In this document: positions 20,610-50,030 of the stretch, in pieces
How positions within the stretch are numbered: the first letter of the stretch is position 1
Layout of the letters: the number at the start of each line of letters is the position of its first letter
From: an uncultured bacterium
GTDB taxonomy: Bacteria > Babelota > Babeliae > Babelales > Vermiphilaceae
Direction: 5' to 3'
Assembly: GCA_963707655.1 (NCBI GenBank)
Contig: OY970172.1
Span: 320,001-384,000, forward strand
Length of the DNA: 64,000 nt
The notes under the pieces: generated by a model
Seen by the model: the letters and a program-made list of their open reading frames with translations, nothing else
What the model was told of the DNA's origin: nothing
Database searches by the model: none
Translations under genes and position numbers: made by a program

Positions 20610-21044
20610 TTACTGTTGCTTTAGTTGCATTTCTAAAAGTGTCGGCAGCACTTTTTCTTGAAAATATTCTGATACGTCATTTCGTGATAATGTTTTTGGT
20701 AAAAATTCTTCGAGGTATTCAAGGAGTTCAAGTATTTGTTCTTCTGTTAGTTTGAGGTCTCGTAGTGTTAGGGAATAGATCTCTAGCAGGATTTGGAGTA
20801 GTTTTTGTTCTTTTTCTTTGCCTTGAGGTTGTTTTTGTAATACTTCTATCAGTTCGCCTGTTATTCTTTTGTGTTCTTGTGGTAAATGTGAGCTTGCTTC
20901 TTCCAGCCATGTTGCTGTCGCGATGATGAGTACCATGTCTTCGTCATAACGCCTTTGCCACTCTTCTTGGCATGAGTCATTGTTAGATTTCACAGACGCT
21001 GTGCCTGAGATGAGCAGTAAAAGAGCTAATATTGTTTTATTCAT
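20610..21044 (-). CDS. Secreted helical hypothetical protein
   Basis: RBS ggagg, signal peptide, E/Q/L-rich. Confidence 0.7.
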   Translation of the reverse strand: MNKTILALLLLISGTASVKSNNDSCQEEWQRRYDEDMVLIIATATWLEEASSHLPQEHKRITGELIEVLQKQPQGKEKEQKLLQILLEIYSLTLRDLKLTEEQILELLEYLEEFLPKTLSRNDVSEYFQEKVLPTLLEMQLKQQ

Positions 21045-29838: not shown

Positions 29839-30169
29839 GGGCAACGGCTCTATCCTGTTGTGTGTTCAAAAAACTTTTACAAAGATTTTTTTATGGTATA
29901 AAAAACAGGGTCAAAAAGCACTACTTGTAAAAAAGATCACGCTGTTTGTAGCTGCTTGAACCCTCGTGGATAATGATATGCTTTGGTGGAATAAATGCAA
30001 GCGTGTCGGTATTTTTTCTTGCATTCATGGACGCCTTTTGTTCATTCTGTTAGGATTATTGCTAATAAAAATTCAATTGTGTTCAATGTCTCAGTACGCC
30101 TGTTTAAAGGCGTTGGGGCATCGGCAGACAATAACTCCCCAAAAAGTATAAAAATATATGGAGAAATTT

Positions 30170-31042
30170 ATGAATATTAAAATAAGTTTTTTGGTAATTT
30201 TATGTGTTGTGTGCAATGAAGCTATGGACGGACGATTGCTACCGCCAGCGCACGCCGGAATAGCACCTATAGTGATGCGACCTCCCGCTGCGCCGTACTA
30301 CTGGCACACTGTGGTAAGACCGATTCCGATGAGGCACTTGAGATCGCAATTTTTGCACGCTGCTACCGGGTTGCCGACATCATTGAGGTCGCGCATGGCT
30401 ATTAATAATCCAGTGCAACTGACGCCAGGTTATTCTGCTTTTGTACGATTGACCCATTCTGCCCCCGCGCTTTCTCGCGCTGCAGCACGCGTTGTTGTGC
30501 CCGCTCGCTCTTTCAGCGCCTTACCGCTGCCGCAAGAAAGCGGCGTTACTTTCACCAATTCCTCTCTTGAGTTGACCAGAGCAGAGCTCGAAGCGCTCAG
30601 TGGCCTTGCGGGAATGAACAAAGTGCGCCATGGCATGAAAAAAGTTAGAGCGAGTTCATTGCCGAAACGGGCTCAAATTTTAATGTCTGACTCTGACTGC
30701 GACGAATTTTGCTCGCCGGAATTAGTACGGCATGAGTTACCGCCATTGGATGAGGATAACTGGAGTGTCACACTGGTTAAGAGACGCTTGCGATACACGT
30801 GCAAGTTTTGCGATGTTGTTTGTATGGACCTTTTCCATGCAGAGTGTCACGCATCGAGTAATAAGCATCGGAAAAACTTTAATCTTCCATTATCAGCATG
30901 GAACGAAAAAACATATCGGTGTACGCCGTGCCGGTATGGATCTATAGAGTCGCAACCAATGAGACAACATCTGAAAACCCCCGAGCACAAGAACGCCAAG
31001 CGTAAAGCAAAGAAAGCGAATGAAAATTTTGTGCAGAATTGA
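30170..31042 (+). CDS. Secreted protein with two C2H2 (CX2CX12HX5H) zinc fingers; distant relative of the array family
   Basis: Signal ending NEA-MD; KVRHGMKKVR; CKFC...HASSNKH and CTPCRYG...HLKTPEH; basic tail. Confidence 0.75.
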   Translation: MNIKISFLVILCVVCNEAMDGRLLPPAHAGIAPIVMRPPAAPYYWHTVVRPIPMRHLRSQFLHAATGLPTSLRSRMAINNPVQLTPGYSAFVRLTHSAPALSRAAARVVVPARSFSALPLPQESGVTFTNSSLELTRAELEALSGLAGMNKVRHGMKKVRASSLPKRAQILMSDSDCDEFCSPELVRHELPPLDEDNWSVTLVKRRLRYTCKFCDVVCMDLFHAECHASSNKHRKNFNLPLSAWNEKTYRCTPCRYGSIESQPMRQHLKTPEHKNAKRKAKKANENFVQN

Positions 31043-38383: not shown

Positions 38384-38546
38384 GATTTGATACATCCCAC
38401 CCAAACAAAATCAATCTAAAGAGAGCCCCTGTTGCAAAAAATGGGGGCTCTTTCTTTGTTCATTACGATCTCTATGCATGATCACTTCATAGCATATTTG
38501 AGTTGTTTTATATATTCAATGTGAAATTATGCAAGTCCATGGCTTT

Positions 38547-38575
38547 TTGACTGTTTTCATATATTTTTATAAAAT
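38547..38575 (+). promoter_or_regulatory. sigma70-type promoter of the zinc-finger array
   Basis: TTGACT-N17-TAAAAT ~70 bp upstream of 38647. Confidence 0.55.
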
Positions 38576-38646: not shown

Positions 38647-39804
38647 ATGAAAAAGACATTATTCGTCATCCTATCGCTGGCTTGCCACAGTTGCTGGGCG
38701 ATGGTCGCAGTTGAAGACGCCCCATTCGGTCAGTTGGCTCTGTTTGACCATGGATTTCAACCGGGTACACCGCTGCCACCCGTTGGAGAAGGGGATGAAC
38801 TTGCACAATGGGCGATGCGGGAGGCAGTTTCTACGCCTGATGCAGCAAACAGCATCGATGCAGTATTGTCTGCAGAGCAAAAGAAAGAAGTCTCTGCTCT
38901 TCATGCAGCATCTTTGGTTACGGTAAAAAAAGGAATGAAAAAGAGAAAAATAGCGAGAAGCGCGCTGTGGTGCGAGGAATGCAGATGTCGGGCAGTAAAT
39001 CTGAAGAACTTTGATCTGCACAAGCAAAGCAAGGGCCATTTAGAAAAAACAGGGCAGCCGTTACCACATTGGTCAGTATACAATTTCACCTGCGCACCAT
39101 GTGAATACGGGTCGTTTCGTAAGCAGGACTTGAATGCGCACATGCTCAGCAATTCTCACCTAATACAAACAGGACAATCGTTGCCGGATTGGCAAGTACA
39201 TAAATACAGATGTAAAACATGTAAATATGGAACGAGCAAAAGAACAGCCATGGATATCCACCTGCTCAGCAAGAGCCATTCAGAAAAAACGGGACAATCG
39301 TTATTAGATTGGTCAACATATGATTTTGCCTGCGAACCATGTGAATATGGAACTTGGAAAAAAGATCACTTCGATCTGCACATGCTCAGCAAGAGCCATT
39401 TAAAAAAAGTGGGACAATTGTTATCAGATTGGCAGGCATGTAAATACAAATGCGAAATATGTGAATATGGCATCGCTCAAAAAGTAAAATTTAATGAACA
39501 CATGCTAAGCAAAGGCCATTTAGAGAAAATAGGGCAATCGTTGGCGTGGGATGCATATCAATATAAATGTGCACCATGTGAATATGGAACCCCGCTGAAA
39601 AGAAGCTTGAATGCACATATGCTCAGTAAGGACCATTTAGAAAAAACAGGACAATCGTTACCAGCTTGGTCAGAATATGATTTTACCTGTGCACTGTGTA
39701 AATATGGAACTCCGCATAAAAGTAACTTAGATAGGCATATGCGAAATAGTAGGCATAAGAAAGCTTATTTGAAATCAATTGAAGTCCTGATTAGGAAAGA
39801 ATAG
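38647..39804 (+). CDS. Secreted tandem zinc-finger protein, paralog 1 (7 fingers)
   Basis: Signal peptide, KKGMKKRK, 7x CX2CX12HX5H. Confidence 0.92.
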   Translation: MKKTLFVILSLACHSCWAMVAVEDAPFGQLALFDHGFQPGTPLPPVGEGDELAQWAMREAVSTPDAANSIDAVLSAEQKKEVSALHAASLVTVKKGMKKRKIARSALWCEECRCRAVNLKNFDLHKQSKGHLEKTGQPLPHWSVYNFTCAPCEYGSFRKQDLNAHMLSNSHLIQTGQSLPDWQVHKYRCKTCKYGTSKRTAMDIHLLSKSHSEKTGQSLLDWSTYDFACEPCEYGTWKKDHFDLHMLSKSHLKKVGQLLSDWQACKYKCEICEYGIAQKVKFNEHMLSKGHLEKIGQSLAWDAYQYKCAPCEYGTPLKRSLNAHMLSKDHLEKTGQSLPAWSEYDFTCALCKYGTPHKSNLDRHMRNSRHKKAYLKSIEVLIRKE

Positions 39805-39841
39805 TTGAGGCCGCAATAGTAATCGCAAGGAAAATAATAAG

Positions 39842-40852
39842 ATGAAAAAGATATTACTCGTTATTCTATTGCTGGCTTGCCCCAGCTGCTGGGCGATGGT
39901 TGACGTTGAATACGCTCCATTCAGTCAGTTGGCTCTGTTTGACTATGGATTTCAACCAGACGCGGCGTTACTAATGGAAGAAGAGGGGAATGAGGACGAA
40001 CTTGCTCAATGGGCAATGCGGGAGGCAGTTTCTGCCCCCGATGCGACGAACAGCAATGATGCAGTATTGTCTACAGAACAAAAGAAGGCAGTCGCCGCTC
40101 TTCATGCGGCATCTTTGGTTACCGTAAAAAAAGGCATGAAACAGAGAAAAATAGCGAGAAGCAAGCTGTGGTGTAAGGAATGTAAATATCGGGCAGAGAG
40201 GCCGGTTGATTTTGATCGGCACAAGCAAAGCAAGGGCCATTTGGAAAAAATAGGACAGCCGTTGCCACATTGGTCAATATATGAATTTACCTGCGCGCCA
40301 TGTGAATATGGGGTCGTACGTAAAAAGGATTTGAATACACACATGCGAAGCAAAGGGCATTTAGAAAAAACGGGACAATCATTGCCAGATTGGCAGGCAT
40401 ATGAATTTACGTGCGCACCATGTGAATATGGAGCTTTGCAAAAAGCAACCTTGAATCTGCACATGCGGAGCAAGGGTCATTTAGAAAAAACAGGACAATC
40501 GTTGCCAGCTTGGCAAGCATATGAATTTACTTGCGTACCATGTGAATATGGGGGCGTGCGTAAGGAGGATTTGAATGCGCACATGCAAAGCAATTCCCAC
40601 CTAATAAAAACAGGACAATCGCTACCAGATTGGCAAGCATATGATTTCACCTGTGCCACATGTAAATATGGAGCCTTGAAAAAAACAACCTTGAATGACC
40701 ACATGCAAAGCAAAAGCCATTTAGAGAAAATAGGGCAATCGTTGGCGTGGGATGCATATAAATACAGATGTGAAACATGTAAACATGGCTTCTTGCAAAA
40801 AGGGCATTTTGATAGACATATGCGCAGTAAGAATCATAAAAAGCTTATTTGA
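39842..40852 (+). CDS. Secreted tandem zinc-finger protein, paralog 2 (6 fingers, tail frameshifted)
   Basis: Same architecture, 6 fingers. Confidence 0.92.
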   Translation: MKKILLVILLLACPSCWAMVDVEYAPFSQLALFDYGFQPDAALLMEEEGNEDELAQWAMREAVSAPDATNSNDAVLSTEQKKAVAALHAASLVTVKKGMKQRKIARSKLWCKECKYRAERPVDFDRHKQSKGHLEKIGQPLPHWSIYEFTCAPCEYGVVRKKDLNTHMRSKGHLEKTGQSLPDWQAYEFTCAPCEYGALQKATLNLHMRSKGHLEKTGQSLPAWQAYEFTCVPCEYGGVRKEDLNAHMQSNSHLIKTGQSLPDWQAYDFTCATCKYGALKKTTLNDHMQSKSHLEKIGQSLAWDAYKYRCETCKHGFLQKGHFDRHMRSKNHKKLI

Positions 40853-40920
40853 AAGCATTGAAATCCTGACTAGGAAAGAATAGCTAAGGCCGCAATAGTA
40901 ATCGCAAGGAAAATAATAAA

Positions 40921-41967
40921 ATGAAAAAGACATTATTCGTTATCCTATTGCAGGCTTGGCCCAGCTGCTGGGCTATGGTTGACGTTGAAGACGCTCCATT
41001 CAGTCAGTTGGCTCTGTTTGACCATGGATTTCAACCAGACGCGGCGTTACTAATGGAAGAAGAGGGGCATGAGGACGAACTTGCTCAATGGGCAATGCGG
41101 GAGGCAGTTTCTACACCCGATGCGGCGAACAGCAATGATGCATTACTGCCTACAGAACAAAAGGAGGCAGTCGCCGCTCTTCATGCGGCATCTTTGGTTA
41201 CCGTAAAAAAAGGCATGAAAAAGAGAAAAATAGCGAGGAGCGAGCTCTGGTGTAAGGAATGCAAACATCGGGCAGTAAATCTGTATAACTTCGATCTGCA
41301 CAAGCAAAGCAAGGGCCATTTAGAAAAAACAGGACAACCATTACTCCATTGGTCAGCATACAATTTTACCTGCGCGCCATGTGAATATGGGGCGCTTCGT
41401 GATAAGGACTTGAATGTGCACATGCTAAGCCGTTCTCACCTAATAAAAACAGGACAATCGTTACCAGATTGGCAAGCATATAAATACAGATGTGAAACAT
41501 GTAAATATGGAGCTTGCAAAAAAACAACCTTCGATGTGCACGTGCACAGCAGGAGCCATTTAGAAAAAACAGGACAATCGCTGCCAGATTGGCAAGCATA
41601 TGAATTTACGTGTGCACCATGTGAATATGGAAGCCCGCAAAAAAGTAACTTGAATTTGCACATGCAAAGCAAAGGTCATTTAGAGAAAATAGGGCAATCG
41701 TTATCAGATTGGCAAGCATATGAATTTACTTGCGAACCATGTGAATATGGGGCCGTGCGTAAGGACGATTTGAATGCACACATGCACAGCAGGAGCCATT
41801 TAGAAAAAACAGGACAATCGTTACCAGATTGGTCAGCATACAATTTCACCTGTGCACTATGTGAATATGGAACCCCGTATGAAAATGACTTAGATAGACA
41901 TATGCGCAGTAAGAAGCATGAGAAAGCTTATTTGCAATCAATTGAAGTCCTGACTAGGAAAGAATAA
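40921..41967 (+). CDS. Secreted tandem zinc-finger protein, paralog 3 (6 fingers)
   Basis: Same architecture, 6 fingers. Confidence 0.92.
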   Translation: MKKTLFVILLQAWPSCWAMVDVEDAPFSQLALFDHGFQPDAALLMEEEGHEDELAQWAMREAVSTPDAANSNDALLPTEQKEAVAALHAASLVTVKKGMKKRKIARSELWCKECKHRAVNLYNFDLHKQSKGHLEKTGQPLLHWSAYNFTCAPCEYGALRDKDLNVHMLSRSHLIKTGQSLPDWQAYKYRCETCKYGACKKTTFDVHVHSRSHLEKTGQSLPDWQAYEFTCAPCEYGSPQKSNLNLHMQSKGHLEKIGQSLSDWQAYEFTCEPCEYGAVRKDDLNAHMHSRSHLEKTGQSLPDWSAYNFTCALCEYGTPYENDLDRHMRSKKHEKAYLQSIEVLTRKE

Positions 41968-41993
41968 ATAGTAATTACAAGGAAAATGATAAG

Positions 41994-43151
41994 ATGAAAA
42001 AGATATTACTCGCTATCATAATGCTGACGGCCTCCAGCGGCAGGGCGATGCTTGAAGTTGAAGATGCTCCATTCGGTCAGTTGGCTCTGTTTGACTATGG
42101 ATTTCAATCAGGTACGCCGTTGTCACTGGTTGTAGAAGGGGACGAACTTGCACAATGGGCGATGCGGGAGGGAGCTTCTACACCTGATGCGGCAAACAGC
42201 ATCGATGCATTATTGTCTACAGAACAAAAGAAAGCAGTCGCTGCTCTTCATGCGGCATCTTTGGTTACCGTAAAAAAAGGCATGAAACAGAGAAAAATAG
42301 CGAGAAGTAAGCTGTGGTGCAAGGAATGCAAATATCGGGCAGGAAATCTGAATCACTTTGATGAGCACAAGCGAACCAAGGGCCATTTGGAAAAAACAGG
42401 ACAACCATTACCACATTGGTCAACATATGATTTTTCCTGCGAACCATGTGAATATGGGGTCGTGCGTAAGAAGGATTTGAATATACACATGCGAAGCAAA
42501 GGCCATTTAGAAAAAACGGGACAATCGCTACCAGATTGGGCAGCATACGATTTTACCTGCGCACCATGTGAATATGGAGCTTTGAAAAAAGCAACTTTGA
42601 ATTTGCACAAGCGAACCAAGGGCCATTTAGAAAAAACAGGACAATCGCTACCAGATTGGTCAACATATGATTTTTCCTGCGAACCATGTGAATACGGAAC
42701 CATGAAAAAAACAACCTTGAATGACCACATGCAAAGCAAGAGCCATTTAGAAAAAGTAGGACAATCGTTATCAGATTGGCAAGCATACGATTTCACCTGT
42801 GCACTATGTAAATATGGCACCACGCAAAAAGTAAACTTGAATGCACACATGCAAAGCAAGGGCCATTTAGAGAAAGCAGGGCAATCGTTGGCGTGGGATG
42901 CATATCAATATACATGCGCACCATGTGAATATGGAACCCCGCAAAAAAGATGCTTGAATGCACACATGCTCAGCAAGGATCATTTAGAAAAAACAGGACA
43001 ATCATTGCCAGATTGGCAAGCATACAATTTCACCTGTGCACTATGTAAATATGGAACTCCGCATAAAAGGAACTTAGATAGACATATGCGCAGTAAGAAG
43101 CATGAGAAAGCTTATTTGAAATCAATTGAAGTTCCGGCTAGGAAAGAATAG
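41994..43151 (+). CDS. Secreted tandem zinc-finger protein, paralog 4 (7 fingers)
   Basis: Same architecture, 7 fingers. Confidence 0.92.
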   Translation: MKKILLAIIMLTASSGRAMLEVEDAPFGQLALFDYGFQSGTPLSLVVEGDELAQWAMREGASTPDAANSIDALLSTEQKKAVAALHAASLVTVKKGMKQRKIARSKLWCKECKYRAGNLNHFDEHKRTKGHLEKTGQPLPHWSTYDFSCEPCEYGVVRKKDLNIHMRSKGHLEKTGQSLPDWAAYDFTCAPCEYGALKKATLNLHKRTKGHLEKTGQSLPDWSTYDFSCEPCEYGTMKKTTLNDHMQSKSHLEKVGQSLSDWQAYDFTCALCKYGTTQKVNLNAHMQSKGHLEKAGQSLAWDAYQYTCAPCEYGTPQKRCLNAHMLSKDHLEKTGQSLPDWQAYNFTCALCKYGTPHKRNLDRHMRSKKHEKAYLKSIEVPARKE

Positions 43152-43188
43152 CTAAGGCAGAAATAGTAATCGCAAGGAAAATAACAAG

Positions 43189-43986
43189 ATGAAAAAGACA
43201 TTATTCGTCATCCTAGTGCTGGCTTGCCCCAGCTGCTGGGCGATGGTTGAAGTTGAAGATGCTCCATTCGGTCAGTTGGATTTGTTTGACTATGGATTTC
43301 AACCGGGCGCGGCGTTGCTGATGGAAGAAGAGGGGAATGGGGACGAACTTGCGCAATGGGCGATGCGGGAGGCAGTTTCAGCACCCGATGCGGTGAACAG
43401 CAATAATGCATTACTGTCTACAGAACAAAAGAAGGCAATCGCTGCTCTTCATGCGGCATCTTTGGTTACCGTAAAAAAAGGCATGAAAAAGAGAAAAATA
43501 GCGAGAAGTAAGCTGTGGTGCAAGGAATGCAAATGTCGGGTAATAAATCTGAAGAACTTTGATTTGCACAAGCAAAGCAAGGGCCATTTAGAAAAAACAG
43601 GACAGCCGTTACCACATTGGTCAGCATATGAGTTTACTTGCGCACCGTGTGAATACGGGGCTTTTCTTAAGCAATCTTTGAATGCACATATGCGAAGCCG
43701 TTCCCACCTAATAAAAACAGGGCAATTGTTACCAGTTTGGCAAGCATATAAATACAGATGTGAAATATGTAAATATGGAACTCCGCATAAAGGAAACTTG
43801 AATACACACATGCAAAGCAAGGGCCATTTAGAGAAAACAGGGCAATCGTTGGTGTGGGATGCACATAGATACAGATGTGAAATATGTGAACGTGGCTTCT
43901 TGGAAAAAGGGCATTTTGATAGGCACATGCGCACTAAGAAGCATGAGAAATCAGTAACTAAAAAAACAATCGTGAGGAAAAAATAA
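43189..43986 (+). CDS. Secreted tandem zinc-finger protein, paralog 5 (4 fingers)
   Basis: Same architecture, 4 fingers. Confidence 0.92.
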   Translation: MKKTLFVILVLACPSCWAMVEVEDAPFGQLDLFDYGFQPGAALLMEEEGNGDELAQWAMREAVSAPDAVNSNNALLSTEQKKAIAALHAASLVTVKKGMKKRKIARSKLWCKECKCRVINLKNFDLHKQSKGHLEKTGQPLPHWSAYEFTCAPCEYGAFLKQSLNAHMRSRSHLIKTGQLLPVWQAYKYRCEICKYGTPHKGNLNTHMQSKGHLEKTGQSLVWDAHRYRCEICERGFLEKGHFDRHMRTKKHEKSVTKKTIVRKK

Positions 43987-43987
43987 G

Positions 43988-44929
43988 ATGAAAAAGATAT
44001 TACTCGTTATCCTGTTGCTGGCTTGCCCCAGATGCTGGGCGATGGGCGAAGAAGCCTCATACTACGATCAGTTGGCCCTGTTTGACCATAGATCTCAACG
44101 AGATGTTCCCTTTTTATCAATGGAACAATGTGATGTGGACGGAATCGCGCCATGGATTATTGATGAGGAAAATCCGTTTAGCCAGTGGAATCCATCTGAC
44201 TATGAATTGCGACTAGGCACGCCATTATTGACACCGAGGCAAGAAGATGATGGGTGTGAGCTTGAGTCTTTGGCAATGCAGGGCAATGTTGTGGATCCTC
44301 ATGAGGAGCTGGACATCGGTGCATCATTGTCTACAAAACAAAAGAAAGCAGTCGCCGCTCTTCATGAGTCATCTTTGATTACCGTAAAAAAAGGTATGAA
44401 AGAGAGAAGAATAGCTAGGGGTAAGTTGTGGTGCAAGGAATGCGGATATAATGTCTGGCATAAAGGAAACTTGAATGCACACATGAAAGGCAAAGTTCAT
44501 CTAAGAAGAACAGAACAATCGTTACTAGATTGGCAAGAGCATAAACACAGATGTGCACCATGCAAATATGGTGACTGGCATAAAGGACACTTGAATGCAC
44601 ACATGAAAAGCAAAGCGCATCTAAGAAAAATAGAACAATTGTTGTCATCGGTATCGGGGCAATATCAATGTCCACCATGTGGATATGACACCCCTTTGAA
44701 GCGTAGCTGGAATGCGCACGAGCGTAGTAGGGACCATTTAGAAAAAACAGGACAGTTGTTAAAAGATTGGCGCTCATATGAATATAAATGTAAAACATGT
44801 AAACATGGCATGGCTTCCAGGCTTCAATGGGATACACACGTGCGAAGCAAGCAACATGTGCAAACAAGTAAACTGCTTATTGAAAATCAACGGAAAAGCG
44901 CCAGAGTAAAAGAAATAGCTAAAGCTTGA
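43988..44929 (+). CDS. Secreted tandem zinc-finger protein, paralog 6 (4 fingers, divergent)
   Basis: Same signal peptide and KKGMKERR block; longer acidic region; 4 fingers. Confidence 0.9.
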   Translation: MKKILLVILLLACPRCWAMGEEASYYDQLALFDHRSQRDVPFLSMEQCDVDGIAPWIIDEENPFSQWNPSDYELRLGTPLLTPRQEDDGCELESLAMQGNVVDPHEELDIGASLSTKQKKAVAALHESSLITVKKGMKERRIARGKLWCKECGYNVWHKGNLNAHMKGKVHLRRTEQSLLDWQEHKHRCAPCKYGDWHKGHLNAHMKSKAHLRKIEQLLSSVSGQYQCPPCGYDTPLKRSWNAHERSRDHLEKTGQLLKDWRSYEYKCKTCKHGMASRLQWDTHVRSKQHVQTSKLLIENQRKSARVKEIAKA

Positions 44930-44963: not shown

Positions 44964-44995
44964 AAAAACCCCGCCAATATAAAAGCGGGGTTTTT
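44964..44995. terminator. Bidirectional terminator ending the zinc-finger array
   Basis: aaaaaccccgc...gcggggttttt. Confidence 0.8.
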
Positions 44996-45015: not shown

Positions 45016-46767
45016 TTATCTTATTGATTTAAGAACATCAATCAACTCTTTGAGCGATTTTTGCAAGGTATAGACCGATGCCGGCACTGGAACCAGTTGC
45101 ATTAAATTAGCATTGGGGACTGGTTGAGGTTCGCCCAAAAATGCCCATCGTTTATCAGCAGTAATGGTGCTTTCCTGATTTTTTATAGCATCAATCTGTT
45201 GCATTATTGAATTAATTGTTGCGGTTTTTGCGATTATTTCATCAACATCTATCTTATAATATTTTTTTTGTTCCGGGCTGAACTTGCTAAAGCGAACACG
45301 AAGAGCATTTGCTTTCTCCATAGTGCGGTCCGCGGCGTTTATTGCGCTTTGCAACGCATTTGCTGCTTGAGTATTAACGGGTGTAGCAGTACTCAGTACC
45401 AAAGTCTCTATATTTTTAAAGTTATTATCAATAAGAATATCAGTTACTCTATCCAGAGAAGAAGATAAATTGTCAAAGCTTTTTTCAGTTCGTTTATCTT
45501 CTTCACCTTTCTTTTTTTCATCCTCTTTTTTTGGTTTATCTGTTGCTGCCGGTTTAGCTGCTTCTTTTTTGCCTTCAGCCGGTTTTGGCATTGGCGCAGC
45601 GCCGCCTGCTTTTGGTGCGGATGCACCGCCGCCAGCGTTACCTCCTGTTTTACCGGTACCGCCGCCGGTTGATCGTGTTCCGGCTTCGGTTGATGAAGGT
45701 TGGTTGTCTGCAGAACCAAAACGAGGTTGTCCTGTTTGCTGATACAATGCATCATTTGAATAGCCACTGCCATATGAAGGGGTTTGTCTTTGCACCTTGC
45801 TGTATTGTGGTGCGGGTGCCTCATAACCAGCGGTGATTACCGGCGTTGCTGGGCGGGGGGCAGCACTTTTTTGTGCTTCCTGTATGCTTTTTGTTTTTTC
45901 TTCACTTAATTTAGCGGCCTTTGGTCCGTATGTGCCAATGATGCTTTCAAGGCTTGCGGGCAAACCGAGTTTGTAAAATGCCTCACTAATGCAGCTGAGC
46001 GCTTTTTTAAAGGCGGTGCTTGATTTTTCAGTCAAAGTAGTAGAACCAAATTCAGGAATTTCAATATTTGGTTCATTGATGCGTAACACACTTTCTACGC
46101 GTGCGAGGTTGTTGCGTACAACTTCATTTTTAATCAATTCAGGCAAATATTTATATTCTTTTGTTTTTGGATCGCGATCTTTCATCTTTGAGAGTTGTTG
46201 TATCAAAAGCTCTATCTGGCCTTTTAGTGTTTCCCAGCGGTCAAAAGATGGATTGATGCCGCCTTCTTTGAGCCATGCGCTCACTTTTATTGAAAAATCG
46301 GGAATAAGAGCACTTTTGCTTATTATTTTTTCAAGTCTTGTTAAAAGACTATCAATAATGGCAGCAGCTTCATCTATTTTTGAAGAAGCAATCGGTTTAG
46401 CCGCCGGTTTTGTTTCCTGCGTTACCGGCGTAGAAACAACAGGAGTTGTTTCTGTTATTGGTGTTTCAATCGGTTTAATTTTTTCTTCCAGTTGAGTAGC
46501 CTCTTTTTCAACTTCTGCCCAAAACTCTTCAAGAAATTTTTCCTGCTCGGCCGGTGGTAATTTAGCAACTTCCTTTTCAAGCTCTTGCATGATTTCCATA
46601 AAAAATTGCTGTTGCTGTTCCTCATTGAGTCCCTGTACCATCTCCATCATTTCGCGTTCTTGCGGATCTAAGCGAGAAAGGTCGAGCGCGCTCGCGCTTG
46701 TCACTACGATTGCAGATCCCCATATAATGAGCGATAAGAGCACAAGAAGATTTCTGAAAAAATTCAT
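45016..46767 (-). CDS. Large exported hypothetical protein with low-complexity linker
   Basis: Signal peptide, E/Q-rich helices, G/P/K-rich linker. Confidence 0.75.
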   Translation of the reverse strand: MNFFRNLLVLLSLIIWGSAIVVTSASALDLSRLDPQEREMMEMVQGLNEEQQQQFFMEIMQELEKEVAKLPPAEQEKFLEEFWAEVEKEATQLEEKIKPIETPITETTPVVSTPVTQETKPAAKPIASSKIDEAAAIIDSLLTRLEKIISKSALIPDFSIKVSAWLKEGGINPSFDRWETLKGQIELLIQQLSKMKDRDPKTKEYKYLPELIKNEVVRNNLARVESVLRINEPNIEIPEFGSTTLTEKSSTAFKKALSCISEAFYKLGLPASLESIIGTYGPKAAKLSEEKTKSIQEAQKSAAPRPATPVITAGYEAPAPQYSKVQRQTPSYGSGYSNDALYQQTGQPRFGSADNQPSSTEAGTRSTGGGTGKTGGNAGGGASAPKAGGAAPMPKPAEGKKEAAKPAATDKPKKEDEKKKGEEDKRTEKSFDNLSSSLDRVTDILIDNNFKNIETLVLSTATPVNTQAANALQSAINAADRTMEKANALRVRFSKFSPEQKKYYKIDVDEIIAKTATINSIMQQIDAIKNQESTITADKRWAFLGEPQPVPNANLMQLVPVPASVYTLQKSLKELIDVLKSIR

Positions 46768-47663: not shown

Positions 47664-48055
47664 ATAAACCGGGGATGGCCCTTATTACCGTTTTTCTTTG
47701 TTTGTCTGCCTCATCCGTAATCATTCTTACCGCTTATCAAGCAATAGCGCTATTGCCCATTTTTTCCCGTGATCATATTAAATATCAAGCAGATGAACTG
47801 ATGCTTGATGGGGCTTGTATATATGCGCGCGAATTTTGCAGAGAAAATTGGAAACGCCTTGTTTTTTATGCTCAGCAGGGGGAAAAACAAGAGATATTTT
47901 TTGCGCCATCATCATCACCCGGTGTTCGAGCGCGCATTGGTATTAACTTGGGTACCAAAGAGCAGCAGATAGAAATATCGTTATTAAAAAAAGGCCAGCA
48001 GAGCTGTATGCGAAAAATATCTATAAATCACAACTGTGCCATTGCCTTACAGTAA
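47660..48055 (+). CDS. PulK/PilX-like minor pilin
   Basis: KPGMALITV (lacks E5, as in PilX/GspK); overlapping ATGA junction. Confidence 0.6.
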   Translation: MNKPGMALITVFLCLSASSVIILTAYQAIALLPIFSRDHIKYQADELMLDGACIYAREFCRENWKRLVFYAQQGEKQEIFFAPSSSPGVRARIGINLGTKEQQIEISLLKKGQQSCMRKISINHNCAIALQ

Positions 48056-48076
48056 CTATGCATCTCACCTGTATGG

Positions 48077-48422
48077 TTATGCCCGTCTCGCGCGTCTGGT
48101 AGCAGTTCTATGCGCAGTGGTGTTGTTGTGTTGAGTAAGATGTGTAACAATATCAGTGCCATACTGGCACGTTTTATACGTATATTCATGAAGGTACCAC
48201 GCTAAGAGCGGTAGTCCGGTAGCACGCTTCTTGGTCACCGCCAATCGAGCTATTTTTAAGTTTTTGGGCGCTCTTATATCCAGAGGCTCTGTATTGGCAT
48301 TGAGTCTACTGGCGTTTGTGAGCAGCCAATTCAATCTCATCTGTTATTGCCAGATCAATTTCTTGGGCAATGGCAAGGGAAAATGTGCTGATTATGAATA
48401 GTATAATTATTTTTGGCATCAT
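48077..48422 (-). pseudogene. Degraded copy of the 49000-49614 zinc-finger gene
   Basis: MMPKIIIL...STFSLAIAQE then a frameshift near 48325 into KNLKIARLAVTKKR; single finger with C->Y (YKTC). Confidence 0.8.
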
Positions 48423-48696
48423 TATTCGTATGATTTCATGTATTGCGTGACTGCCTTAGCTTGCCCTTAAAACGATTCTTTATCAAGAGTAGATAAAAAG
48501 AAATTCTATGCGCCATTCAAAGACGCATAATTCTTACCCTTATGTTAATTCTTCTCCTCCTGCTTATTCAAACAACAAAGAACTCAGCCAACAGTGATAC
48601 AAGAAAGTATAAAAAGGACTGACCCTTGCTCAACTATTACTGATACATGTCATCATTGAAACCAAGAAGCTCCCCGTAATAATACCCGAGCAGTCA

Positions 48697-48921
48697 TTGG
48701 TTCAAGGACCGTTGGAAAAAACATCTAACATGGTAAGTATTAAAAACCCTCAGCAAGACTCACCCGAAGTGCCAAAGGAATTAACGCAAGTTGTCTACAC
48801 GCAACAACTCTTTAATGGCCTTCCAGAATCAATAAGAAAGTATCTGTCTACTGTGGCGAGTCCACAACCTGTTCCTCAATCAATACAAAAGAGTATTGAC
48901 AGAATTGTGCGAGCGCACTAG
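48697..48921 (+). pseudogene. Possible gene remnant
   Basis: Frame open from ~48613 (KGLTLAQLLLIHV..) but no ATG. Confidence 0.3.
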
Positions 48922-48999
48922 ATAGAGCCATACATTCGGGAGGGCAGGGGTTCTCTGCGGGCCCCTGAATGGGATCAACCACTTCTGGTTGTCTAGGCG

Positions 49000-49614
49000 T
49001 TATTGTTGTGCTCGTAAGGTTTGCAAGTCAATCGGTGCCACGCGTTCGGCGGCAGTTCTATGTTTGGCGCTATTGTTGTGTGAGGTAAAACGTTCGCGCC
49101 GATCAGTGCCATACTCGCACGTTTTACACATATATTCACGAAGGTACCACGCTACTTGCGGTAGTCCAGTAGCAGCTCTATGCGCAGTACTGTGGTTATG
49201 TTGAATAAGATGTGAAAAAACATCAGTGCCATACTTGCACGTTGCACACGTATATGCACGAAGGTACCACGCTACTTGCGGTAGTCCGGTAGTAGTTCTA
49301 TGTTTGGCGGTGTTATTATGTTTAACAAGGTCTGCAGGCTGATCAGTGCCATACTTGCAAATCTCACATATATATTTACGCTTACGCCACGTTGAAGCAA
49401 CACGCTTTTTGGTAGCTAATCGAGCCGCTTTTAAGTTTTTGGATACTTTTACGCTCGTGGGCATGGGCTTTGCATCAGCATTTACTTTCCCTATGTTTGC
49501 CAGTATAGTAACAGCCAATTGAATATCACCGATTCTTACTGGATTGACTTCTTGAGCCATTACCAGAGAAAATGTGCTGAGTATAATTATTTTTATCATC
49601 ATCATCATCATCAT
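49000..49614 (-). CDS. Secreted 3-finger C2H2 zinc-finger protein (second subfamily)
   Basis: Signal peptide, TKKR..WRKRK, 3x CxxCxYGTD...HX5H with TGLPQVAWY linkers. Confidence 0.88.
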   Translation of the reverse strand: MMMMMMIKIIILSTFSLVMAQEVNPVRIGDIQLAVTILANIGKVNADAKPMPTSVKVSKNLKAARLATKKRVASTWRKRKYICEICKYGTDQPADLVKHNNTAKHRTTTGLPQVAWYLRAYTCATCKYGTDVFSHLIQHNHSTAHRAATGLPQVAWYLREYMCKTCEYGTDRRERFTSHNNSAKHRTAAERVAPIDLQTLRAQQ

Positions 49615-50030
49615 AGTTTCATTTTCCGTGCTCGTTTATGTGTGCAACTGCCTTAAACCAATCTTGCGTGGGTGATGAATTCTAGCTTGCCTTTTAAATG
49701 ACTTTTTATCAAGAACGAGCGACCTAAAAATACAATATGTCATATAAGGGCGCATAATTCATTGCCATTATGTCAATAAAGCCCGCCTGCTCATTCAGAC
49801 GAAAAAAGCTAAACTAACAGCGATACAAGATGATATAAAAAGGACTATTACATAATGTATTCTTAATCGGAAAAAATAGTATCGGCCCGATTTTGCGAGG
49901 CAAAATGTAATAAACCATTCCATCTCATGGCTAACATTGAAAAGGCGATTACGTTTTTTATTTCCAAGCAACTTTTTTTGGGCTATACTTTTTGCCATTA
50001 ATAAAGCATTTTTTTATGTATAGGAACATT

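Follow-up and report, generated by a model that had tools for sequence, protein, structure and literature searches.

What would a bacterium of the phylum Dependentiae do with a tandem cluster of zinc-finger genes whose products all begin with an export signal? The question is raised by a 64,000-nucleotide stretch of DNA (positions 320,001 to 384,000 of contig OY970172.1; hereafter the window), which is part of a Dependentiae (Babeliales) genome represented by a single 1,091,075-bp contig with 41% G+C. At 38647-44929 of the window lie six tandem paralogous open reading frames (ORFs), all on the + strand, and each product combines a putative signal peptide, an acidic segment, a basic patch and an array of Cys2His2 (C2H2) fingers. 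A preliminary description had proposed that these are exported host-nucleus effectors with a modular zinc-finger code, an independent counterpart of the transcription activator-like (TAL) effectors. Judging from their sequences, the six proteins are C2H2 fingers of zf-met/JAZ type; they are not TAL effectors, since every testable defining feature of that family fails, and they are not Ros/MucR proteins. Their reading as exported, host-directed effectors is well supported by comparison with other genomes. As to what they bind, we tentatively favor double-stranded or structured host RNA as the likeliest ligand of such effectors, short of calling it probable. The six genes are as follows.

38647..39804, + strand: paralog 1, 385 aa; signal peptide at residues 1-19, acidic region, helix with KKGMKKRKIAR, 7 fingers
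39842..40852, + strand: paralog 2, 336 aa; 6 fingers; C-terminal cap finger of FLQKGHFDRH type
40921..41967, + strand: paralog 3, 348 aa; 6 fingers; weakest hydrophobic core of the six (1.96)
41994..43151, + strand: paralog 4, 385 aa; 7 fingers; signal peptide without Cys (…SSGRA|M)
43189..43986, + strand: paralog 5, 265 aa; 4 fingers; the protein modelled by AlphaFold2
43988..44929, + strand: paralog 6, 313 aa; 4 fingers; most diverged; acidic region 40 residues longer

A regular-expression search with C-x2-C-x12-H-x5-H identified 7, 6, 6, 7, 4 and 4 fingers in paralogs 1 to 6, and in all 34 units the pattern is kept and the four ligand columns are invariant. The units recur with a period of 40 residues (39 where the linker reads SLAWDAY), their 34-finger consensus is WxAYxFxCxxCEYGxxxKxxLNxHMxSKxHLEKTGQSL, and they are joined by a 17-residue, non-TGEKP linker, LEKTGQSLPDWQAYEFT. 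At the DNA level, Tandem Repeats Finder reports 120-bp arrays within genes 1-4. The ORF coordinates in the preliminary description proved exact, and its finger counts, ligand spacing and consensus of about 40 residues agree with these results.

Based on Pfam, these are true C2H2 arrays, as had been proposed: all six paralogs pass the gathering cut-off for at least one of zf-met (PF12874), zf-C2H2_jaz (PF12171) and zf-C2H2_2 (PF12756), with best whole-protein scores of 50.4, 43.7 and 51.2 bits against cut-offs of 21.2, 22.6 and 26.9, respectively, and a marginal pass for paralog 6 (jaz, 22.8 versus 22.6). Scored finger by finger, zf-met matches 12/34 units, zf-C2H2_2 12/34, zf-C2H2_jaz 10/34 and the classical zf-C2H2 family (PF00096) 7/34. 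The ROS_MUCR domain is absent among the Pfam matches at E ≤ 0.1 for all six paralogs.

AlphaFold2 models of paralog 5 and of a single unit with both linkers predict two strands and a helix for each finger, with a pLDDT (per-residue model confidence) of 83-90; a third beta-strand is not seen. In both models a second helix, after a break, is predicted to hold the last His; in paralog 5 the two helices span residues 161-168 and 171-177, with His173 in the second. For Xenopus ZFa, an additional helix at the C-terminal end is described, whose N-terminus bears the fourth zinc ligand (PMC7614390), and long non-TGEKP linkers are described as setting the class of ZFa, JAZ (ZNF346) and wig-1, which prefers double-stranded RNA (dsRNA), apart from DNA-reading arrays (PMC5100589). 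As these sources present it, the class shares with the array its multiple C2H2 fingers, long non-TGEKP linkers and H-x5-H spacing, and ZFa also the second helix that we see in the models (PMC5100589, PMC7614390). The differences are that ZFa, JAZ and wig-1 are eukaryotic nuclear proteins without signal peptides, whereas the linkers here are shorter (17 residues) and highly conserved, within tandem units that repeat strictly every 40 residues and vary on the helix face. The linkers of ZFa have 34-44 residues. On linkers, His spacing and modelled helix, we assign the fingers to a zf-met/JAZ/ZFa-like subtype whose fold class leans, not decisively, to RNA-duplex binders.

Structural searches with the single-unit model returned weak matches throughout, with E ≥ 0.8 in Foldseek and Z ≤ 3.5 in VIA. 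Alignments extended furthest for RNA-associated fingers, namely those of pre-60S particles, the spliceosomal B complex, TUT1-U6 and JAZ (weak, at Z 3.0-3.5), and classical DNA-binding fingers aligned over a 22-30-residue core only; JAZ (2mkn) scored Z 3.0 and ZFa (1zu1) Z 2.2, both weak and in the same range as classical fingers. With the four-finger model, Foldseek listed generic poly-finger DNA complexes (PRDM9, CTCF, ZBTB) at a template modelling (TM) score of 0.2-0.26, and finger classes were not discriminated. In the ESM Atlas, the look-alikes of whole paralog 5 are zf-met clusters of giant viruses, fungi and arthropods; their score of 0.91 is of low confidence and below the range of reliable recognition, and we take them as a lead only, not as evidence of origin.

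The weak structural matches of the unit also include the EEA1 finger bound to Rab5 and the IKZF and SALL4 fingers bound to CRBN. C2H2 fingers can contact proteins, and the arrays might accordingly be host-directed scaffolds or decoys, comparable to the phylum's ankyrin, F-box and WD40 effectors, with no nucleic-acid binding. A variable exposed helix face would suit any evolving interface, and the Dependentiae effectors described so far in the Babela paper are protein-interaction repeats (PMC4378268). We nevertheless regard this as improbable, given that the finger arrays are basic in 5/6 paralogs (net charge +11 to +18; paralog 3, +2), that a Lys at helix position +1 and a Ser-Lys pair before the last His are kept in most units, as would suit phosphate-backbone contacts, and that all the Pfam families matched are nucleic-acid-type fingers. 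Finger family and basic charge together point to nucleic-acid binding.

All six N-termini read MKK, followed by 12-13 hydrophobic residues and a small-x-A|M site (C-W-A|M; G-R-A|M in paralog 4), a pattern that we judged with a hydropathy heuristic at thresholds of 2.2 and 1.9. The acidic segment is present in all six proteins (56-96 residues; net charge -8 to -18), and AlphaFold2 predicts residues 20-73 of paralog 5 to be disordered (pLDDT <50), bar a short helix over DELAQWAMRE. It is followed by a long basic helix (residues 78-107 in the paralog 5 model; net charge +5 to +9) that ends in KKGMK(K/Q/E)R(K/R)IAR. The Sec-type N-terminus, acidic stretch and basic patch of the preliminary description are thus found in 6/6 paralogs; the implied role of the patch as a nuclear localization signal (NLS) is weakened, as a strict K-K/R-x-K/R motif occurs in 3/6 paralogs only. 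An ESM Atlas search with the N-terminal region gave no usable match. A hydrophobic N-terminus is present in 11/11 C2H2 ORFs of the source genome (10 at threshold 2.2, one at 1.96) and, by the same hydropathy rule, in 430/958 of its ORFs of at least 100 aa.

Separately, the residues AM[DE] occur within residues 13-40 of 34/430 ORFs with a hydrophobic N-terminus in the source genome, compared with 2/430 in residues 61-88 of the same ORFs and 7/528 among the other ORFs. Within the window, signal-like N-termini ending in Ala-Met-Asp/Glu include those of ORFs starting at 30158, 32504, 32927, 37793 and 9976, and an 'AM' junction is also present in finger proteins of other Dependentiae. From its position in these sequences, the junction may be a lineage-specific cleavage or sorting motif.

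A Sec signal alone reaches only the periplasm, and the proteins might be undelivered: periplasmic or surface proteins, anchored by signal or lipid, or soluble zinc-buffering or envelope proteins. Four of the six paralogs have a lipobox-like L-x-L-A-C at residues 9-13, the six proteins together would offer 34 Cys2His2 sites, and DsbA was not found (one search, in a genome scored 88.6% complete), so that finger cysteines could stay reduced in their passage through the periplasm. We hold this reading, too, to be improbable. Paralogs 3 and 4 have lost the lipobox Cys, yet all six retain the small-x-A|M site; a zinc store needs no conserved linker, diversifying helix face or acidic and basic modules; and the fold family is a eukaryotic nucleic-acid-binding one, in a layout that recurs with TGEKP arrays across the phylum. 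A lipoprotein as the leading explanation was rejected on the same loss of the lipobox, whose Cys is residue 13.

The isoleucyl-tRNA synthetase (IleRS) encoded just upstream of the array has its nearest relatives in Dependentiae/Babeliales/TM6 genomes, the best of which, a congener, is 84% identical; the Vermiphilus pyriformis IleRS is 56% identical. The source genome has three ATP/ADP translocase genes (4 TLC matches), two secretins, and ATPases of the type II secretion system/type IV pilus (T2SS/T4P) type. Marker searches of the genome gave no matches to VirB4, FHIPEP or VipB, and with one marker family searched per system no marker of type III, type IV or type VI secretion was found. In the literature, T2SS is described as the sole secretion system found in Babela (PMC4378268), gspD is listed in two copies in all TM6 genomes (PMC4776705), and signal peptides are reported on 44% of Chromulinavorax coding sequences (PMC6561590); the source genome, with no other secretion marker, agrees with this T2SS-only picture. 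Eukaryote-like Dependentiae proteins with signal peptides are read in the same literature as factors released into the host (PMC4378268, PMC6561590). We infer export and action in the host from the signal peptides, the finding of no other secretion marker and this published reading of the phylum. For the narrower class of nucleomodulins, bacterial proteins at work in the host nucleus, the signal peptides and that reading give indirect support only. As a side observation, a second T2SS/T4P-type ATPase match (G000:C1:764698-765845, - strand) is broken by in-frame TGA and TAG codons and may be a pseudogene or a sequencing error.

The layout is not confined to this locus. In Pfam searches, zf-met matches were found in 32/261 Dependentiae genomes and 0/14 control genomes, and classical zf-C2H2 (PF00096) matches in 81/261 Dependentiae genomes, 59 of them over the cut-off, and 1/14 controls. 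The statement that C2H2 arrays are rare in bacteria therefore fits the controls (0-1/14) but not the Dependentiae. The best PF00096 loci are tandem paralog clusters of classical 28-residue TGEKP fingers, in which each paralog opens with a signal-like segment and continues with an acidic stretch and then a basic patch immediately ahead of finger 1. Three genomes have clusters of 5-7 paralogs with 4-12 TGEKP-linked fingers: G073 (L105, G073:C1:232500-243500, on a 643-kb contig) has seven finger genes with 5-12 fingers each, G112 (L106, G112:C2:1-6000) has five, and G113 (L107, G113:C28:1-9500) has six. Single genes or pairs occur in G003, G008, G105, G110, G135, G156 and G256, and basic patches of KKRKR type are present in other Dependentiae arrays. 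That the contigs are long and bacterial, and the tandem genes compact and free of introns, speaks against contamination from a host. In the two cultured relatives examined, PF00096 matched nothing in Vermiphilus pyriformis and gave a single match, below the cut-off, in strain Noda2021, so that neither offers a ready culture system for such arrays.

Among complete ORFs with at least two fingers from other Dependentiae, 29/39 (threshold 2.2) or 36/39 (threshold 1.9) have a signal-like N-terminus, compared with 45% of source-genome ORFs, and in 16/39 the 40 residues preceding finger 1 contain K[KR]x[KR], compared with 3.5% of random 40-residue windows; these 39 ORFs come from loci picked through finger matches, and paralogs within a cluster are not independent. 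On this sequence survey, signal-peptide-bearing poly-C2H2 proteins are common in Dependentiae, unlike in the controls, and the combination of signal, acidic, basic and finger modules noted at the array recurs in unrelated zinc-finger families in many genomes.

The source genome also has a second tandem trio of signal-peptide-bearing zinc-finger genes (G000:C1:725791-730060; L113:3292-7558), with products of 399, 524 and 440 aa. These consist of ~108-residue units, each with a C2H2 finger (CxxCNY…H…H), a Cys/His-rich 'ICACN…F…H.C' segment and a conserved TKIATTDQERRIQAAW, and they match zf-C2H2_2, REST and jaz in Pfam. A T2SS-type ATPase gene (722934-724079, - strand) lies 1.7 kb upstream.

If the fingers read a target, the residues that differ among them should matter. 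Helix positions -2, -1, +2, +3 and +6 vary most among the 34 fingers; conserved are the scaffold, the linker TGQSLPDW, the Lys at +1 and the Ser-Lys that precedes the last His. For a selection test we took the a priori contact positions -1, +2, +3 and +6 and compared collinear paralogs 1-5, a design that replaced a test over all finger pairs. Nonsynonymous divergence (dN) was 0.67 at the contact positions and 0.20 at other non-ligand positions, a value reached by 10/10,000 random four-position sets. The ratio of nonsynonymous to synonymous divergence (omega) was 0.87 for a 'helix face' whose positions were picked after seeing the variability, and we give it little weight because of that post hoc choice. 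On these alignments, replacements concentrate on the recognition face, and positive selection is not shown. Of the modular recognition code in the preliminary description, what holds is that the fastest-changing residues are recognition-helix positions; omega there is about 0.9 and not above 1.

Outside the helix face, omega was 0.33 (scaffold and linker) and 0.48 (N-terminal region), values which indicate that the genes are maintained under purifying selection, and all six reading frames are open. These results bear on a further explanation, that the genes encode cytoplasmic bacterial regulators or are decaying, functionless recent duplicates. Prokaryotic C2H2-type regulators do exist (Ros/MucR, as cited in PMC12491435), and the array is absent from the congener. 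We consider the explanation very improbable, since six open frames under such constraint speak against decay, and against regulators speak the lack of a Ros/MucR Pfam match and the MKK N-terminus, which by the positive-inside rule would make the fingers face outside the cytoplasm.

The arrays are mosaics, with DNA identities between fingers (paralog.finger) of 92% for 2.2/4.2, 91% for 2.3/4.3, 91% for 1.6/4.6, 92% for 3.6/4.7 and 82% for 2.6/5.4; the first finger is conserved across arrays, and the last is of two types. Between paralogs 2 and 3 (5' parts, window 39842-41300), synonymous divergence is 0.06 in the N-terminal region and ~0.6 in the fingers, which suggests recent gene conversion or recombination of the export/N-terminal module. 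The paralogs are 52-73% identical to paralog 1, with paralog 6 at 52%. Recent lineage-specific amplification is the best explanation of these sequences. Recent horizontal transfer, examined through composition, left no signal: array GC (0.43-0.44) and third-position GC (0.39-0.43) are like those of neighboring housekeeping genes.

Several of these features suit another reading, close to the original one, in which the proteins act on transcription in the host nucleus and read DNA sequence finger by finger, in a modular code, with the basic patch as NLS and the acidic segment as activation domain, in analogy to TAL effectors. The DNA-contact positions -1, +2, +3 and +6, together with -2, vary most, which is why we keep DNA reading as a strong rival, possible if unlikely; dN at these four is significantly raised (10/10,000). 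The number of fingers varies between arrays, which draw in mosaic fashion on a common set of finger types, as in KRAB-ZNF and PRDM9 arrays; the best sequence matches of the finger profile in the Protein Data Bank are DNA binders, and the four-finger Foldseek search lists PRDM9, CTCF and ZBTB; other Dependentiae have signal-bearing TGEKP arrays with KKRKR-type patches; and acidic and basic modules are present in 6/6 paralogs. CTCF, PRDM9 and KRAB-ZNF arrays share with the array the ligand pattern, the core F/Y-x-C-x2-C-x-Y…L-x2-H, variability at -1, +2, +3 and +6, and evolution by unit gain and loss, but here TGEKP is absent, the units measure 40 residues and not 28, and the two His are spaced as H-x5-H where those arrays have H-x3-4-H. 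The 17-residue linkers, the H-x5-H spacing and the additional C-terminal helix match the dsRNA-preferring class, not arrays that read contiguous triplets. Furthermore, the strict classical NLS motif is found in 3/6 paralogs only, omega is not above 1, and the acidic region is modelled at pLDDT <50. A DNA code, though possible, is not the best fit, as the zf-met/JAZ/ZFa-like subtype is described as dsRNA-preferring (PMC5100589, PMC7614390).

We therefore return to effectors exported by an obligate parasite of protists and directed at RNA, a ligand favored because of the finger subtype. Under this explanation, the proteins would cross the inner membrane by Sec and leave the bacterium by type II secretion, the sole dedicated export system with markers found. 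In the host, each 40-residue unit (a zf-met/JAZ/ZFa finger plus its conserved 17-residue linker) would bind nucleic acid, the ligand would be double-stranded or structured host RNA, possibly in the nucleus, and the quickly changing residues where the recognition helix begins would adjust each paralog's preferred target.

Several points weigh against it. Omega at the contact positions was 0.93 versus 0.43, which is no higher than relaxed constraint would give and was not significant by permutation (1535/10,000), and the test over all 561 finger pairs was saturated and likewise not significant (1997/10,000). The best solved-structure sequence matches of the finger profile are the DNA binders PRDM9 (2.9e-14), Aart and CTCF, in alignments that span the core up to the first-histidine region, and the single-unit structural matches are all weak. 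Binders of dsRNA that read the backbone are not expected to diversify recognition-helix residues. Type II secretion releases folded proteins outside the bacterium, and the membrane of a host vacuole, if one exists, would remain to be crossed. Export, host entry and ligand binding are all deduced from sequence, models and comparison, with signal peptides called by the hydropathy heuristic only.

A broader reading, which we raise as a doubtful but possible one, is that Dependentiae have repeatedly made C2H2 arrays of eukaryotic type into 'programmable' effectors, exported by Sec and T2SS, amplified in tandem, evolving fast and reading specific sequences of host DNA or RNA through a modular finger code. 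They might then stand beside TAL effectors, and beside the arms race of KRAB-ZNF proteins, as a bacterial counterpart, and the array described here could be a private version with 40-residue units; the TGEKP-linker versions, if they belong to it, would be present in about a third of the phylum's genomes.

The boundaries of the array and the signals between its genes are as follows.

38420..38453, + strand: intrinsic terminator of the upstream 196-aa ORF; 14-pair stem with 6 GC pairs, then a T run
38547..38575, + strand: promoter-like site TTGACT-17-TAAAAT; 10/12 consensus matches, 72 nt before the first ATG
39805..39841, + strand: conserved intergenic element …ATAGTAATCGCAAGGAAAATAATAAG with an AAGGA ribosome-binding site
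40853-40920, 41968-41993 and 43152-43188, + strand: further copies of the AAGGA intergenic element
44964..44995, both strands: bidirectional terminator hairpin; 11-bp GC-rich stem, 10-nt loop, T run

The terminator at 38420-38453 forms the 5' boundary of the unit. Intergenic gaps are 37, 68, 26, 37 and 1 nt, with paralog 6 starting 1 nt past the stop of paralog 5, and the conserved AAGGA element that each gap carries suggests that the unit of duplication was a gene plus its own ribosome-binding site. The hairpin at 44964-44995 (-20.8 kcal/mol; z -3.47) is common to the array and a convergent 583-aa ORF (45016-46767, - strand). The preliminary description had placed all six genes between one promoter and one terminator; candidates for both framing sites were found, and the layout is consistent with one operon but not proven to be one, because promoter-like matches across the region are no commoner than in shuffles (12 versus 18.2).

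Short contigs from four public DNA runs (three studies) match array pieces with 0-1 differences, which indicates that the paralog-specific sequence is not private to this assembly; the contigs are low-depth DNA of 151-299 bp and cover parts of the array. One contig of 272 bp, from a peat metagenome run (X4), joins 42075, at the start of paralog 4, back to 39924 in paralog 2; it may reflect a chimera induced by the repeats or an array variant that has fewer genes.

The array's upstream neighbors are murD, ftsW and ileS, and its downstream neighbors are minor pilin/pseudopilin genes; no functional link to any of them was seen. In the one congener, the locus is syntenic from ileS through the convergent gene (609 aa), the pilin genes, L9 and dnaB, with no zinc-finger gene at the place of the array. 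The congener has three small signal-peptide-bearing finger genes elsewhere, in tandem (L090, G001:C29, 11312-13038; 141, 194 and 224 aa), flanked by an FtsH-like AAA gene and rpiB. A THGMKK patch like that of the array family is present in one of the three, and the spot in the window syntenic to the trio (20610-21044) holds an unrelated 144-aa ORF.

Searching a word index of 5.8 billion proteins with paralog 4 and with profile A2 brought up nothing beyond the paralogs of the window and a single metagenome protein, P0049. Profile A1 matched 4/61 related genomes, including the source genome, with weak matches in all the others, and the broader profile A2 matched 4/261 genomes of the phylum. A HMMER scan of 1.84 billion representatives gave 1355 matches at E ≤ 1e-3, nearly all finger-only and resembling eukaryotic or giant-virus poly-finger proteins. 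Five metagenome proteins (P0010, P0031, P0049, P0077 and P0098), on contigs of 1.2-13.9 kb, have the whole layout of signal, acidic segment, basic patch and 3-4 fingers, at a spacing of ~40 residues (40-47). A scan of genome contigs with A1 gave 603 pattern matches, none of which was confirmed, and scans of metagenome contigs with A1 and P0010 gave no match. By these searches, the six-gene family is nearly an orphan, almost private to this species. Two distant members lie in the window itself.

30158..31042, + strand: distant family member, 294 aa; signal peptide, HGMKK patch, 2 fingers
49000..49614, - strand: distant family member P0065, 204 aa; signal peptide, basic patch, 3 fingers, 40-residue period

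The first matches profile A2, of which it is a row, with E 8e-54. The second lies where the congener has, between its pilin genes and rplI, a 453-aa multi-pass membrane ORF (L092, G001:C56, 9352-10713), which from the look of its sequence we take to be apolipoprotein N-acyltransferase-like; the window counterpart (48055-49992) holds the three-finger gene and a weak finger-like remnant at 48098-48265. In another genome of the same order, weak finger-profile matches (G053:C1:406346-413212; L011/L014/L016) have 10-15 stop codons each and may be decayed zinc-finger genes or a repeat region.

How new is such a system? The TAL effectors of Xanthomonas and Ralstonia consist of 33-35-residue helical repeats with a repeat-variable di-residue and are delivered by type III secretion. 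The array resembles them in function only: its proteins, too, pair an export signal with basic and acidic stretches and with modular tandem repeats whose variable residues could set nucleic-acid specificity, and the paralogs differ in repeat number; its unit is a 40-residue, zinc-dependent C2H2 finger of unrelated fold, its signal is Sec-type with no FHIPEP (SctV/FlhA) match in the genome, and its acidic region is N-terminal. The likeness drawn in the preliminary description thus survives as an analogy of function and not as membership.

The nearest functional precedents, by analogy, are MoHTR1-3 of the rice blast fungus and the signal-bearing ankyrin-type effectors of Dependentiae. MoHTR1-3 are described as combining a signal peptide with a C2H2 domain and acting in the host nucleus (PMC12488382, PMC10189765), but they are small fungal proteins with one finger domain (MoHTR2, 110 aa; PMC12488382), in contrast to a bacterial six-gene cluster with 4-7 fingers per protein. 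The ankyrin, WD40, LRR and F-box effectors of Babela and Chromulinavorax share the phylum, the proposed Sec-then-T2SS route and lineage-specific repeat expansions (PMC4378268, PMC6561590); they are protein-interaction repeats, whereas the array is of a nucleic-acid-binding-type zinc finger. In the texts of open-access papers and bioRxiv preprints, we found no literature linking C2H2 fingers to Dependentiae; the term 'zinc finger' is absent from the texts of the Babela and Chromulinavorax papers, and 'zinc' from that of the TM6 paper. For secreted C2H2 effectors, a search of the same literature for bacterial examples found only fungal and oomycete work.

To our knowledge, bacterial effectors that target nucleic acids are few, and TAL effectors are the only modular, re-programmable ones; they became a genome-engineering platform. 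If multi-finger C2H2 arrays are indeed exported into protist hosts, they would be a second, independent modular solution beside them, and one that uses biology's best-understood DNA- and RNA-reading module. Whichever nucleic acid is bound, the 40-residue unit with its conserved linker would be a new natural scaffold for finger engineering, and the proteins are small, soluble-looking and easy to express, hence directly testable. For the Dependentiae themselves, the arrays would offer a handle on how a little-studied, globally distributed phylum of protist parasites controls its hosts.

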